Below, piece after piece: positions 19,352-55,558 of a stretch of DNA of 64,000 nt. The stretch's first letter is position 1, and each line of letters opens with the position of its first letter. Position numbers and translations under genes: made by a program. Source of the stretch: Candidatus Nomurabacteria bacterium RIFCSPLOWO2_01_FULL_42_17. GTDB lineage: Bacteria > Patescibacteriota > Minisyncoccia > Phycocordibacterales > UBA9973. The stretch spans positions 8,751 through 72,750 of the forward strand of contig MFVE01000008.1 of NCBI GenBank assembly GCA_001785985.1. Reading direction: 5' to 3'. The notes beneath the pieces are model-generated. The model was not told where the DNA came from and ran no database searches. It saw only the letters and a list, made by a program, of their open reading frames with translations.

Positions 19352-19372
19352 TGTAGACGTCCGACGTCTACA
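19352..19372. repeat. REP1 palindrome copy (TGTAGACGTCCGACGTCTACA), 3' flank of RAYT1
   Basis: Perfect palindrome with 10-bp arms. Confidence 0.8.
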
Positions 19373-19376
19373 AGTG

Positions 19377-20084
19377 TTAATCATCATTAAAGTGAAAGTC
19401 GATTTCTTCTAAATTATCACGTCTATCTTTAAAAGATTTCTTCCCCCTACTCTCTCGCACTATATCAATTATTTCTTTTCCGTGTCGGTAAAAATTTTCA
19501 TAACCGCCAAACCATTCAAGAAATTTATTTCCTTCTTTGGGATTTATAATAAAAAAATTACCTTTTTCATATTCTTCTTCACTACTACGCACTAATTTTA
19601 ATTTATTTTTTGAAATATTATGCACTTTATAATTCCACATTACATAAGCAAAAATCATTTCAAAATAATTTTCCTTTTCAGCATAATTTGATTTAAATTT
19701 CCCTTGAAGCAACGCTCCGCTTCGCCGATTTTTGTCATTAAAATATCTTGTGTATCCTCCTTGTAATCTTTTCATAAATTCACTGATACCGCCATCAATT
19801 TCCTGTTTTAAAATAAAATGAAAATGATTCGGATTAAGACAATATTCAACAATAGAAACCAATCTTTCTTTATTTTTAGGAATTTGGAGACGTCGGACGT
19901 CTACAAATGATTCTTGTTCGCGAAGTGCTAGTTCTAAACTTCCCACAGGATCTTTATAGGAAAATAATTTCATAGATAATAAAAATCTTGCAGCATCTTT
20001 TTCATCCATGAAAATAGAGCGCTTATCAACGCCTCTATTGTAAATGTGGAAATAAGAACCAGAAATAAAGGGATGTTTTCTCAT
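19377..20084 (-). CDS. IS200/IS605-like HUH (Y1) tyrosine transposase of the REP-associated (RAYT/COG1943) type
   Basis: 235 aa. YHIYNRG first-strand block, HUH motif NHFHFIL, and a C-terminal LLQGKFKS...Y..AYVMWN helix region matching the LWQ.R(F/Y)..H...YIH.NP catalytic-Tyr region of RAYTs. Paralogous to 54271-55026. Confidence 0.7.
   Translation of the reverse strand: MRKHPFISGSYFHIYNRGVDKRSIFMDEKDAARFLLSMKLFSYKDPVGSLELALREQESFVDVRRLQIPKNKERLVSIVEYCLNPNHFHFILKQEIDGGISEFMKRLQGGYTRYFNDKNRRSGALLQGKFKSNYAEKENYFEMIFAYVMWNYKVHNISKNKLKLVRSSEEEYEKGNFFIINPKEGNKFLEWFGGYENFYRHGKEIIDIVRESRGKKSFKDRRDNLEEIDFHFNDD
19888..19908. repeat. REP1 palindrome copy (GAGACGTCGGACGTCTACA) embedded in-frame in RAYT1, encoding VDVRRL
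   Basis: Near-perfect copy, read directly. It lies about 200 bp from the gene's 5' end in the loop between the YHxYNRG block and the HUH motif. Confidence 0.8.
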
Positions 20085-20100
20085 ATCTTTAGTATATCAT

Positions 20101-20121
20101 TGTAGACGTCGGACGTCTACA
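20101..20121. repeat. REP1 palindrome copy (TGTAGACGTCGGACGTCTACA), 5' flank of RAYT1 / 3' flank of murG
   Basis: Perfect palindrome. Confidence 0.8.
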
Positions 20122-22398: not shown

Positions 22399-22430
22399 GA
22401 GGCAAGACCTAACATGTTAGGTCTTGCCTC
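22399..22430. promoter_or_regulatory. 32-bp perfect palindrome GAGGCAAGACCTAACATGTTAGGTCTTGCCTC, filling most of the 44-bp mraY-ftsW spacer
   Basis: Reverse complement checked base by base. No T-run follows on the minus strand, so it is not a canonical terminator. Confidence 0.6.
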
Positions 22431-42066: not shown

Positions 42067-43517
42067 TTTCAGGTAAAAAAATAATATTGTATAACACTCT
42101 CTCGCGGACAAAAGAAAACTTCGCCCCTATTAATAAAAAGGAAGTTCGAATGTATACTTGCGGACCGACGGTGTATAACTATGCCCATATAGGAAACCTG
42201 AGGTCTTATGTCTTTTCTGATATTTTACAAAAAACTTTAGAGTATTCTGGATATAGAGTAAAACGTGTTATGAACATCACCGATATTGGGCACCTTTCCA
42301 GCGATGCTGACTCGGGAGAAGATAAAATGACAAAGGGACTTTTGCGTGAAGGTAAAACTCTTACGCTCAAAAATATGCGTGAGCTTGCAGAATTTTATAC
42401 AGAAAAATTCAAAGAAGATTTAAAAGCTTTGAATATTAAAATACCTACCGATCTATACTTCGCGAGTGATTATGTCAAAGAAGATATCGAACTCATCCAA
42501 AAATTAGAAAAAAAGAGTTACACATACCAAATTAGCGATGGGATTTATTTTGATATTTCTAAAATGCCGGATTATGGAATTCTGTGGGGAGGCAAAGGGA
42601 ATAAGGAAACCAAAAATGAATCGCAAACTAGAATTGGAGAAAATTCCGAAAAAAGAAACTCGGAAGATTTTGCTCTGTGGAAATTTGATAAGAAAATAGG
42701 TTTTGAGTCGCCTTGGGGTACAGGATTTCCCGGTTGGCATATTGAATGCTCGGCAATGGGTATAAAATTCTTGGGCGAACAATTTGATATTCATACGGGA
42801 GGAATTGATCATATTCCTGTACATCATACTAACGAAATCGCGCAATCAGAATGCGCAACCGGCAAAAAACCTTTCGTGAAATATTGGATACATCACGAAT
42901 TCTTAGACACGAGCAAGGGAGAGAAAATGGCAAAATCTGGCGAAAATTTTATTACTTTGCGCACCTTGACTGAAAAAGGAATGCACCCGATAACTTATAG
43001 ATTCTGGCTCTTGATGGGCCATTACCGCACTAAGCTAAACTTCGTCTGGGAGGCCCTGGAGGGCGCAGAAACGGCCCTAAAACGGCTTTATAATCTATAT
43101 AGTGAGCTCGGCCCCTCCTCCGCCAAGGCTTCGGCGGGCAAGGAAGATGTCGGCAAAGTAAATAAAGAATACCAAAATAAATTTAAAGAATTTATAGATG
43201 ATGATCTGGATACTCCGAGAGCTTTGACCGTCTTGTGGGATGTATTAAAAGATGAAAATATTTCCAATGCCGACAAAAAAGCGACCGTTTTGGATTTTGA
43301 TAAAGTACTGGGGCTAGGCTTCTCCACCCAAGGCGGACCAGCCTCGGGCTGGGAAAATGACCCTAACGCAGAAAAAATTTCTACATTAGTAGAAGAGCGC
43401 GAACAAGCTCGCCAAAATAAAGATTTCCAAAAATCCGACGAGCTCCGCAAAGAAATAAATTCTCTAGGTTATGAGGTAAAGGATACAACCGAGGGACAAA
43501 AGATTTCTAAGATTTAA
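42063..43517 (+). CDS. cysS: Cysteinyl-tRNA synthetase
   Basis: 484 aa. HIGH (NYAHIGN), KMSKS (KMAKS), the zinc-ligand Cys in MYTCGPTVY, and a DALR anticodon-binding domain. Contains a GC-rich patch at about 43030-43150. Confidence 0.9.
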   Translation: MISGKKIILYNTLSRTKENFAPINKKEVRMYTCGPTVYNYAHIGNLRSYVFSDILQKTLEYSGYRVKRVMNITDIGHLSSDADSGEDKMTKGLLREGKTLTLKNMRELAEFYTEKFKEDLKALNIKIPTDLYFASDYVKEDIELIQKLEKKSYTYQISDGIYFDISKMPDYGILWGGKGNKETKNESQTRIGENSEKRNSEDFALWKFDKKIGFESPWGTGFPGWHIECSAMGIKFLGEQFDIHTGGIDHIPVHHTNEIAQSECATGKKPFVKYWIHHEFLDTSKGEKMAKSGENFITLRTLTEKGMHPITYRFWLLMGHYRTKLNFVWEALEGAETALKRLYNLYSELGPSSAKASAGKEDVGKVNKEYQNKFKEFIDDDLDTPRALTVLWDVLKDENISNADKKATVLDFDKVLGLGFSTQGGPASGWENDPNAEKISTLVEEREQARQNKDFQKSDELRKEINSLGYEVKDTTEGQKISKI

Positions 43518-54270: not shown

Positions 54271-54291
54271 GTGGAGGACGGTCCTTCACAG
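54271..54291. repeat. REP2 copy (GTGGAGGACGGTCCTTCACAG), 5' flank of RAYT2
   Basis: One mismatch from a perfect palindrome. Confidence 0.75.
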
Positions 54292-55026
54292 TATGATATA
54301 AATATGCAACGACCTCATACATTTTCTATCGACGAGTACTATCATTTATATAATCGCGGAACTGACAAGAGATCTATTTTTCTAGATGTTAATGATTATC
54401 ATCGATTTATTATGCTTCTCTATCTTTGTAATACAATCGAGCCATTTGATATGCAAAAGATTTTCCGCACTAACGGTGAAGGACCGTCCTTCACAGAAAT
54501 ATTTAAACTTCATCGAGGTCAGCCCATTATTTCCATAGGCACCTGGGTACTCATGCCAAATCATTTTCATCTATTGGTAAAAGAAATAGCTGAAGGAGGA
54601 ATCACGACATTCATGCGAAAAGTGAATACTGGATATTCAATGTATTTTAATAAAAAATATGGGAGAACGGGAAATCTATTTCAGGGAAAATTTAAATCAG
54701 AACATGCCGATAATGATAATTATCTTAAGTATCTTTTTTCATATATCCATCTTAATCCAATAAAATTAATCAGAGGCGAGGATAACTGGAAAGAAGTTGG
54801 AATTACAAATCTAAATAATGCAAAAGATTTTTTATCTAAATATGAATACTCAAGTCTGCCTAGTTATCTAACTATAAAGACTAATTTTAACAAAATTATT
54901 CAGAAAGATTTATTCCCTGAATATTTTCCTGATCCAAATAATATATGGGATGATATGACAGAATGGCTTACTTCTAAAAAAGAACCCGAAGAAAAAATTA
55001 TGAAGGACGGTCCTTCACAGAAATAA
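54271..55026 (+). CDS. IS200/IS605-like HUH (Y1) tyrosine transposase of the REP-associated (RAYT/COG1943) type, paralogue 2
   Basis: 251 aa. The start may be the internal Met at 54304. YHLYNRGTDKRSIF block, HUH motif NHFHLLV, and LFQGKFKSEH...YLFSYIHLNPIKL matching the RAYT catalytic-Tyr helix. Peptides GEGPSF and KDGPSQK are encoded by REP2 copies. Confidence 0.75.
   Translation: MEDGPSQYDINMQRPHTFSIDEYYHLYNRGTDKRSIFLDVNDYHRFIMLLYLCNTIEPFDMQKIFRTNGEGPSFTEIFKLHRGQPIISIGTWVLMPNHFHLLVKEIAEGGITTFMRKVNTGYSMYFNKKYGRTGNLFQGKFKSEHADNDNYLKYLFSYIHLNPIKLIRGEDNWKEVGITNLNNAKDFLSKYEYSSLPSYLTIKTNFNKIIQKDLFPEYFPDPNNIWDDMTEWLTSKKEPEEKIMKDGPSQK
54475..54498. repeat. REP2 copy (GGTGAAGGACCGTCCTTCACAGAAAT) embedded in-frame in RAYT2, encoding GEGPSFTE
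   Basis: Perfect 8-bp arms. Same loop position as the REP1 copy in paralogue 1. Confidence 0.8.
55002..55025. repeat. REP2 copy (TGAAGGACGGTCCTTCACAGAAAT) overlapping the RAYT2 stop
   Basis: Perfect palindrome. Confidence 0.8.
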
Positions 55027-55030
55027 AAAA

Positions 55031-55558
55031 ATGAAAAACAAAAAACAGAATTACAAAGAAAAAATATTAAATTTATTGTCGGAAAGAACTGCAGTCTCTT
55101 TTACTGAGATTAATAGATTCGTGAAGGACGGTCCTTCACAGAAATACGCTGTAACCCGTTCAATAAAGGGCTTGAAGGAGGCTGGACTAATAGAACAAAT
55201 AGCATCTCCGCAAAACGAATACGCTCGTTTGACAAAAGAGGGGCAAAAAAAAGTACATATTTTAAAATTAGATAGTGATACGACACTGGTGAATACCACT
55301 TGGGATGGATTTTGGAGAATTATTTTGATAGATCTGCCAGAAGACAGAAAAAGTGAACGCGAAAGTCTACGTTACCTTCTAAAAAAAGCCGGCTTCGTCT
55401 GCTTGAAGAATTCTGCTTGGATCTCCCCTTTCCCCTTTGAACATTTGTTCACGAATATAAAAAAAGACTTGGGACTAAGAGAAGAAATGATGATCATTGT
55501 CACCGAATTTGTGGACGAAGAGACAAAAAAATTTCTATTTGAAACTTTCGGGAAATAA
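55031..55558 (+). CDS. PaaX-family-like transcriptional regulator (N-terminal winged HTH and a C-terminal PaaX_C/Cas2-like domain)
   Basis: 175 aa. wHTH ILNLLSERTAVSFTEIN...VTRSIKGLKEAGLIE. C-terminal WDGFWRIILIDLPEDRKSERESLRYLLKKAGFVCLKNSAWISPFP matches the PaaX C-terminal pattern W.G.W....D.PE...R..LR..L...GF..L..S.W.SP. Carries an in-frame REP2 copy (VKDGPSQK). Confidence 0.55.
   Translation: MKNKKQNYKEKILNLLSERTAVSFTEINRFVKDGPSQKYAVTRSIKGLKEAGLIEQIASPQNEYARLTKEGQKKVHILKLDSDTTLVNTTWDGFWRIILIDLPEDRKSERESLRYLLKKAGFVCLKNSAWISPFPFEHLFTNIKKDLGLREEMMIIVTEFVDEETKKFLFETFGK
55122..55146. repeat. REP2 copy (GTGAAGGACGGTCCTTCACAGAAAT) in-frame within the PaaX-like gene
   Basis: Perfect palindrome. 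Confidence 0.8.

Follow-up and report, generated by a model that had tools for sequence, protein, structure and literature searches.

A RAYT-like transposase gene of candidate phyla radiation bacteria carries its palindrome at the promoter, within the coding sequence and at the 3' end

Introduction

Why does the gene of a putative transposase carry, inside its own reading frame, the palindrome that also flanks it on both sides? This question is raised by a 770-bp unit in a stretch of 64,000 nucleotides, hereafter called the window, from Candidatus Nomurabacteria bacterium RIFCSPLOWO2_01_FULL_42_17 (assembly GCA_001785985.1, contig MFVE01000008.1, positions 8,751 to 72,750). The unit consists of a gene related to the REP-associated tyrosine transposases (RAYTs) and three copies of a palindrome that resembles a repetitive extragenic palindrome (REP): one at each end of the gene and one within it. 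REPs and RAYTs are among the commonest bacterial repeat systems. The control of RAYT expression and the matching of enzyme and hairpin are open questions, and the clade described here bears on both. A first-pass annotation had read the unit as a classic REP-RAYT association in which a REP was additionally tolerated inside the open reading frame (ORF). We compared the locus with its homologs in bacteria of the candidate phyla radiation (CPR) and found that the internal copy is a fixed feature of the gene family.

Results

Three copies of one palindrome

The palindrome of this unit (family 1) is TGTAGACGTC-S-GACGTCTACA, 21 nt long, with two arms of 10 nt around a single centre base. Two exact copies lie directly 3' and 5' of the gene, as the first-pass annotation had stated, and their sole difference is the centre base (Table 1). 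A third copy lies within the coding sequence (CDS). It had been correctly placed in the CDS and correctly translated; its coordinates, given as 19888-19908, were 3 nt off, and it carries one mismatch. On the + strand the internal copy reads TGGAGACG, and on the gene strand the mismatch is a synonymous CTA>CTC change (Leu), so that the segment is translated as ESFVDVRRLQI. When up to 3 mismatches were allowed, the 64 kb contained three family-1 matches in total, all at this gene, and 0.00 were expected by chance in 100 dinucleotide-preserving shuffles. For a second palindrome family in the window, described below, the expectation was 0.01. Chance origin is thus ruled out, and the flanking copies are not coincidental.

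The three hairpins fold as RNA with -9 to -13 kcal/mol. Intrinsic terminators for the minus-strand genes are an unlikely identity: no T-tract follows any of the three copies on the gene strand, and at these copies a terminator scan made a single call, on the + strand at 20101-20121. Membership of a known RNA family was ruled out, since no Rfam family, tRNA included, reached its gathering score across the 64 kb. A phage origin is unsupported, as viral contigs contained no exact match to the palindrome.

The internal copy co-varies with the flanks

The survey of homologs covered 80 metagenomic loci, together with the RAYT-bearing loci from an exact genome scan with the 19-mer of the palindrome. 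Nearly every homolog gene has three palindromes: one upstream of the ATG, near -40, one in the CDS, within about +160 to +196, and one at the 3' end, where it lies just past the stop codon or overlaps it. The palindrome sequence itself varies widely by lineage (for example AGATAGCGCCTAAGGCGCTATCT, TTCGGACGTTGGACGTCCGAA, CACTTGGCGGTTTAACCGCCAAGTG, GTCGGGTGTTGGACACCCGAC, AGTGAGAGCTTTAAGCTCTCACT and CTTAGAGGTTCGACCTCTAAG). As an unbiased test of co-variation, the 19-nt core of each locus's own flanks was compared with its internal zone. With up to 2 mismatches the core was found again in 45 of 63 non-redundant loci, and cores paired with loci of another palindrome family recurred in only 0.3%. 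All three copies agree within 3 mismatches at 43 of 66 loci. Among 38 internal copies, compensatory double changes were found at 9 of the 10 stem pairs, and 94.5% of the cells were paired versus 32-42% with the partner slid; these copies were picked for having a stem and therefore show diversity rather than provide an unbiased test. As a control, the rayT gene of E. coli, one classical RAYT, has no 10-12-mer common to its REP-bearing flanks and its CDS.

To call the internal copy tolerated was an understatement, because its site is fixed in position family-wide, changes together with the flanks and is kept at the DNA level.

Some loci depart from the common layout. In the CACTTGGCGG...CCGCCAAGTG family (L129, L134, L137 and L139-L141) there is an extra in-frame copy at about +445 to +459 of the CDS, which in L139 and L141 appears to stand in for the copy at about +180. 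In L046 (JASEHL010000009), whose genome contains at least 16 copies of TGTAGACGTCGGACGTCTACA, the RAYT homolog has that sequence only at the 3' site and TGTAGCGGTTCGACCGCTACA at the 5' and internal sites; L091 and L119 are likewise mixed. Such a mixed locus as L046 could be an intermediate in palindrome turnover.

The DNA is conserved rather than the peptide

Each lineage's palindrome, once translated, yields the variable loop peptide seen in its genes (VDVRRLQ, IAPKALS, SDVGRP and LGGLTAK, among others). The gene of L010 has the same 19-mer in a different frame and encodes SRRRTST instead of VDVRRLQ, and a flip of the centre base swaps R and G. For these two reasons, we rejected the idea that the palindrome is recognised by the peptide it encodes. 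In the nine GTAGACGTC-clade genes compared, identical residues are encoded by identical codons in 87% of cases inside the palindrome versus 58% elsewhere, a large effect from pairs that are not independent. The codons used by the palindrome are rare in this genome of 39% GC (CGA 8%, CTA 8% and CGT 11%). These comparisons show that the conserved thing is the DNA and not the peptide.

The 5' copy and the promoter

Upstream of the family's ATGs, an extended -10 element of the form TGnTAnnnT is kept at -15 to -7. TAnnnT stands at -12 to -7 in 38 of 60 non-redundant homolog upstream regions, compared with a mean of 1.65 at other offsets, and TG stands at -15/-14 in 36 of the 60, compared with 3.1. 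For the 5' palindrome of the homologs, the median position is -18 for the end and -30.5 for the centre, the latter corresponding to the -35 region. The 5' copy is therefore placed, as far as can be predicted from these positions, in the -35 region of the gene's own conserved promoter. Because the extended -10 element of the window's gene ends 6 nt before the ATG, the RAYT transcript would be leaderless or near-leaderless, with its start at about the ATG. With such a start the 5' copy would lie outside the RAYT mRNA, and the internal and 3' copies would lie inside it.

The protein is a Y1 HUH enzyme of a CPR clade

The search against PF01797 (Y1_Tnp) proposed in the first-pass annotation gave 33.2 bits against a cut-off of 23, with residues 72-148 only aligned (profile positions 37-118). 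The HUH motif is H87-F-H89 (HFH at 19818-19826), and the putative catalytic tyrosine is Y147 (19644-19646) in Y147-VMW-N151 (AYVMWNY at 19629-19649). In an alignment of 28 homologs, H87, Q127, Y147 and N151 are invariant and H89 is nearly invariant. These residues align to H59/H61, Q95 and Y115-IYINP of E. coli RayT, of which Y115 is the tyrosine (PMC8266576, PMC3479197). An AlphaFold2 (AF2) model had a mean predicted local distance difference test score (pLDDT) of 77 and a predicted template modelling score (pTM) of 0.76. In a Foldseek search against the PDB with this model, the top 13 matches were the IS608, TnpA-REP and ISDra2 transposases (probability 0.94-1.0), and the best were IS608 TnpA (2a6m/2a6o) and E. 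coli TnpA-REP (4er8), with probability 0.99-1.0. A sequence-only PDB search with the 235-aa protein returned nothing useful. The profile score, the HUH and tyrosine motifs and the fold matches uphold the earlier assignment to the IS200/RAYT type; of the motifs listed then, HUH and YVMWN are correct, and YHIYNRG reads YFHIYNRG.

Compared with E. coli RayT, the protein is longer by about 30 residues inserted between helix 1 and strand 2 and by a helical C-terminal extension of about 85 aa. The palindrome-encoded residues 60-67 belong to a segment specific to the clade, which joins helix 28-40 to strand 76-83. Almost all of them fall within residues 55-66, where pLDDT drops below 50 as nowhere else in the interior of the model, and in the model this stretch appears as a permissive loop. 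The database holds more than 2,242 homologs, and all source names among 120 listed matches are of CPR/Patescibacteria lineages (Nomurabacteria, Paceibacterota and Parcubacteria) or generic ("bacterium"). The protein is a RAYT-like Y1 HUH enzyme of a separate, CPR-only clade.

A second RAYT-like gene in the window

The window contains a replicate of this layout with a different palindrome (Table 1). The family-2 palindrome, TGAAGGAC-S-GTCCTTCA, occurs four times in the window, and it accompanies a paralog that has the canonical tyrosine motif YIHLNP. Three copies are arranged as at the first gene. The fourth lies in the adjacent PaaX_M/helix-turn-helix (HTH)-like ORF, between two predicted helices. 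In a Nomurabacteria metagenome-assembled genome (MAG; L145), a paralog-2 homolog with 74% identity has the same four sites with its own palindrome variant, and the palindrome in the PaaX_M/HTH-like ortholog stands at the orthologous codons (SVKEGPSQ). The pair of Y1_Tnp and PaaX_M genes is found in at least three genomes, namely those of the window, L145 and the contig of P0139.

Table 1. Positions of the palindrome copies and associated features in the window
Feature	Position	Strand	Sequence	Description
Family-1 3' copy	19352-19372	.	TGTAGACGTCCGACGTCTACA	Exact, centre C; 4 nt past the RAYT stop codon, 8 nt ahead of the ATG of the kinase-fold gene
RAYT-like Y1 HUH CDS	19377-20084	-		235-aa ORF; begins 16 nt past the 5' palindrome and stops 4 nt ahead of the 3' palindrome; PF01797 match, HUH and Tyr motifs, AF2 fold
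Family-1 internal copy	19885-19905	.	TGGAGACGTCGGACGTCTACA	1 mismatch; in frame, encodes F60-VDVRRLQ67
Predicted extended -10 element	20091-20099	-	TGaTATACT	Promoter-like site predicted at 20119-20091
Family-1 5' copy	20101-20121	.	TGTAGACGTCGGACGTCTACA	Exact, centre G; -17 to -37 from the ATG; 3 nt past the murG stop codon
Family-2 5' copy	54272-54288	.		1 mismatch; ends 14 nt ahead of the ATG
Paralog-2 RAYT-like CDS	54304-55026	+		240 aa, 38% identical to the first; Y1_Tnp 31.6 bits
Family-2 internal copy	54477-54493	.		+174 of the CDS, in frame, encodes GEGPSFT
Family-2 3' copy	55001-55017	.		Within the last codons of paralog 2
Family-2 fourth copy	55122-55138	.		In frame (VKDGPSQK) in the PaaX_M/HTH-like ORF 55031-55558

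Copies in other genomes and in host genes

When one genome per species was scanned for exact matches, 86 copies of the family-1 palindrome turned up at 64 loci in 18 assemblies, 17 of which were CPR-type MAGs. The eighteenth was Baekduia, a match within chance (about 4 random matches were estimated in the 596 Gb). Each CPR MAG has 1-16 exact 19-mer copies, mostly far from RAYT homologs, and several copies form doublets spaced 22-29 nt. In these relatives the element is YYT-GTAGACGTC-S-GACGTCTAC-ARR without conserved flanks. A conserved target site or duplication around the copies was looked for and dropped, as only YYT...ARR is present and this merely extends the dyad. GTAG lies inside the stem of family 1, on both strands; family 2 and many of the homologs' palindromes have no GTAG. 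Since the copies are dispersed far from the RAYT genes and some are doublets, the palindrome behaves in these CPR relatives as a low-copy, GTAG-tagged REP. The genomes are deeply diverged, with a cysteinyl-tRNA synthetase (CysRS) 42% identical to that of the window. The labels of some MAGs ("Saccharibacteria", "Bdellovibrionales") may be unreliable, and no claim across phyla is therefore made.

About half of the 95 copies with at most 1 mismatch in other CPR MAGs fall in ORFs of at least 100 aa (in-frame copies in L015, L027, L033, L038, L042, L044, L051, L053, L057, L059, L063 and L064). Pfam comparison of ten host ORFs identified, among others, UvrA, CysRS, the leucyl- and arginyl-tRNA synthetases (LeuRS, ArgRS), a PIF1-like helicase and DnaX; glycosyltransferases are also hosts. 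The host-gene copies read VDV[GR]RLQ or CRR[PR]TST and are often doublets. They are found at orthologous positions in proteins that are 70-79% identical, with the 19-mers exact, which argues for continuing homogenisation or for strong selection on every copy. More distant orthologs, such as L008 and the window's own CysRS (42087-43511), do not have them.

A partial half-site (GTAGACG or CGTCTAC) lies a few bases off the full palindrome in many copies, for example at L003 1565, L023 1970, L028 482, L032 321, L039 1094, L051 4471, L055 5543 and L057 6692. These half-sites may be footprints of a copying mechanism or of slippage.

Genomic context

As the first-pass annotation had noted, the unit lies between murG (PF03033 and PF04101) upstream and an APH/kinase-fold gene (PF01636) downstream, in a minus-strand run with the order ftsW-murG-ORF-kinase-gltX. 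The GC content of the RAYT gene is 30% versus 39% in its flanks, and that of paralog 2 is 32% versus 39%. RAYT-like genes are AT-richer than their surroundings at 68 of 68 loci, by 8 GC points on average. Each paralog is present in the window in a single copy, the two being 38% identical, and both ends of the unit are the same symmetric palindrome. Homologs with 80-83% identity (L023, L036 and L065) have none of the window's neighbour genes in the few hundred bases to few kb available on each side. At L060 (2150-2500), murG with 71% identity is followed by a solo palindrome 3 nt past its stop codon, an ORF of about 60 aa and gltX. The palindrome after murG is thus common to L060 and the window; of the two, only the window has the RAYT and kinase genes. 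From the differing neighbours and the layout of L060, either the unit or its surroundings have been rearranged. No target duplication or multi-copy behaviour of the unit was seen.

Elsewhere in the window, a perfect 32-nt palindrome, GAGGCAAGACCTAACA/TGTTAGGTCTTGCCTC, lies at 22399-22430 between ftsW and a mraY-like gene. It occurs once and is unrelated to both REP families.

Discussion

We consider it probable that the unit is a variant of the REPtron, that is, a RAYT-type Y1 HUH gene with its cognate hairpin palindrome, from a clade confined to CPR bacteria, and that the copies borne by the gene act in cis. The extended -10 promoter would place the transcription start at about the ATG, and the palindrome would then occupy three fixed places: across the -35 region, at codons 60-67 in a flexible loop, and directly past the stop codon. 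If it works as E. coli TnpA-REP and IS608 TnpA do, the enzyme may bind the palindrome's hairpin in single-stranded DNA and may cleave and rejoin the strand beside it by means of an HUH-bound metal and Y147. TnpA-REP binds its REP, cleaves at CT and transfers strands in vitro (PMC3333891, PMC3479197, PMC8266576), and it is from this enzyme that we infer binding and cleavage of the palindrome by the present protein. Such activity could spread and homogenise the palindrome copies, including those in frame in other genes, and the three gene-borne copies would be kept matched to the enzyme's current specificity by concerted evolution. Given that one copy covers the promoter and another is transcribed, these copies would most likely also act in cis as sites by which the enzyme limits its own expression. 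The simplest cis role would be autorepression by promoter occlusion and/or a roadblock.

A stronger form of this proposal is that the palindrome in the ORF is an obligatory cis element: the enzyme gene would carry its own substrate at the promoter, in the CDS and at the 3' end, the enzyme would sense and limit its own gene by autorepression or roadblock, and shifts in specificity would be written back into the gene. We regard this form as possible and hold it tentatively. If it is true, the evolution of enzyme and substrate is physically coupled across thousands of CPR lineages.

Several observations weigh against the proposal that the gene-borne copies act in cis as part of a REPtron. The protein reaches 28.1 bits with the NCBIfam equivalog NF047646 (REP_Tyr_transpos), below the cut-off of 80. 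Because it misses this cut-off and belongs to a separate CPR clade with an extra segment of about 30 aa, we call it RAYT-like and not a classical RAYT, and the earlier description of the locus as a classic REP-RAYT association is not retained. The fold matches are modest (E about 6e-3, template modelling score about 0.5 on the target), and we know of no biochemical activity for any member of the CPR clade. Within the 64-kb window the family-1 palindrome is not dispersed and occurs only at the RAYT-like gene, so that the identification of the flanking palindrome as a REP, made at first pass, is supported by the dispersed copies and doublets of other CPR genomes and, for the genome of the window, is putative. 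A recognisable internal copy is absent in about one quarter to one third of the homolog loci; in the paralog-2 subfamily, L146 is limited to the flank copies, and the internal palindrome of L147 does not match. A fixed orientation of REP and inverted REP (iREP) among the three sites was considered and dropped, since the 5' and internal copies are inverted at 30 loci and direct at 17, and the remaining pairs split roughly equally. Housekeeping genes, too, retain in-frame copies at orthologous positions, and persistence and homogeneity alone therefore need no RAYT-specific function. The case for autoregulation is one of position. Finally, classical TnpA-REP tells REP from iREP and reads an unpaired GTAG (PMC8266576), whereas the palindrome here is fully symmetric and has its GTAG within the stem.

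The serious rival is a neutral one, in which palindromes insert wherever they are tolerated, in-frame positions in surface loops of many proteins included, the RAYT loop is one such site, and general homogenisation of all copies alone keeps the loop copy identical, with no benefit to the gene. Much of the evidence suits it: the abundance of copies inside ORFs such as those of UvrA, the aminoacyl-tRNA synthetases, the PIF1 helicase and DnaX, their exact 19-mers at orthologous positions, the disordered loop that receives the RAYT copy, the family members without an internal copy, and the intragenic REPs known elsewhere (PMC3733652). Yet subfamilies and paralogs as far apart as about 36-43% identity have the internal site at one position despite many palindrome replacements, the copies of both families in the window are only at or next to the two RAYT genes, the housekeeping insertions are missing in distant orthologs, and the 5' copy stands in a fixed relation to the promoter. 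We thus judge neutral hitch-hiking unlikely, while taking it seriously. With moderate confidence, a cis role is favoured over pure neutrality, because the internal site has outlasted many palindrome replacements, in-frame copies in CysRS and other genes are missing in more distant orthologs, and the 5' site is locked to the promoter.

Two further models are less likely. The 770-bp unit could be an autonomous insertion sequence (IS) of the IS200/IS605 type, with the flanking palindromes as left- and right-end hairpins and the solo copies as footprints or miniature inverted-repeat transposable elements. The lower GC content of the gene at every locus compared, the 80-83% identical homologs without the window's neighbours, the L060 locus with murG, a solo palindrome and gltX without a RAYT gene, and the Y1 fold common with IS608 TnpA all accord with movement of the unit. 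An IS is nevertheless improbable, as there is one copy per paralog in the 64 kb and no tnpB, both ends are the same fully symmetric palindrome instead of distinct ends with guide sequences, no conserved target or duplication flanks the copies, solo palindromes far outnumber the genes, and the internal end-like site, if used, would truncate the element. More improbable still is that the palindromes are operators, or RNA hairpins acting as terminators or stabilisers, of another factor such as an HTH repressor, and are not acted on by the Y1 protein. Perfect dyad symmetry at a promoter does resemble that of a classical operator of double-stranded DNA, paralog 2 is paired with a PaaX_M/HTH-like gene, the predicted RNA hairpins are stable to the degree given above, and REPs are known as elements of 3' untranslated regions; but the first RAYT gene has no such partner, no copy there is followed by a T-tract on the gene strand, palindrome identity follows the RAYT paralog, and dispersal with doublets and in-frame copies suits a mobile REP better than a regulon.

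The clade lends itself to study as a natural experiment. Among the roughly 80 loci compared there are dozens of palindromes, each recurring at as many as three sites in the gene (promoter, coding loop and 3' end). A large set for survey is provided by the two paralogs' homologs in CPR bacteria, of which databases contain about 8,000 by counts that overlap. Specificity, autoregulation and the concerted evolution of repeats thereby become directly testable. Moreover, reduced CPR genomes hold active-looking palindromic repeats in frame in essential proteins, which matters for annotation and for protein-family alignments.

The closest known systems are the REPtrons, such as those of E. coli rayT (PDB 4ER8), Stenotrophomonas, Marinomonas (group 3) and the REPIN-RAYT of Pseudomonas. 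The present loci resemble them in that the enzyme is a Y1 HUH protein (HUH motif, YxxxN(P) helix), a short GC-rich cognate palindrome borders the gene at either end, each paralog has a separate palindrome family, the family-1 palindrome contains GTAG, and singles and doublets are dispersed in related genomes. In REPtrons the flanking REPs may also overlap the ends of the RAYT gene (5'ov and 3'ov cases, PMC3733652). They differ in that a third copy is fixed in frame in the middle of the ORF and co-varies with the flanks, whereas E. coli rayT has none, and in that the 5' copy is predicted to stand at the -35 position of a conserved leaderless-type promoter. Furthermore, GTAG is part of the stem of a perfectly symmetric palindrome, which makes REP and iREP identical here, the exact copies are few per MAG, and the protein has the insertion of about 30 aa, the C-terminal extension of about 85 aa and a score below the NCBIfam RAYT cut-off.

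The IS200/IS605 elements (IS608 TnpA 2A6M/2A6O, ISDra2 and IS200) provide the best structural matches and have sub-terminal hairpins at both gene ends, and their recognition of hairpins on single-stranded DNA may be a likeness of the protein described here. IS200 uses hairpins to restrain its own expression. Unlike these elements, the present unit was not seen in multiple copies, has no tnpB, is far outnumbered by solo hairpins, and has identical symmetric ends instead of distinct left and right ends with guide tetranucleotides.

In-frame palindromes in surface loops of housekeeping proteins such as UvrA and the aminoacyl-tRNA synthetases are also known from the Rickettsia palindromic elements and the intragenic GTAG/CGTC REPs (Di Nocera et al. 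2013), the latter having been reported in uvrA, dnaE and tRNA synthetase genes. Unlike in those cases, the host ORF here is that of the presumed mobilising enzyme, and the site outlasts many palindrome replacements. In the REP/RAYT literature, of which our coverage is incomplete so that this is absence of evidence only, we found no conserved, co-varying cognate REP in the middle of a RAYT ORF, no REP fixed at the -35 position of a RAYT promoter and no account of REPs or RAYTs in CPR bacteria. Flanking REPs of RAYT genes, intragenic REPs, the Rickettsia elements and hairpin control in IS200 were thus already known, and what this locus and its homologs add is the co-varying layout of three sites on one gene.

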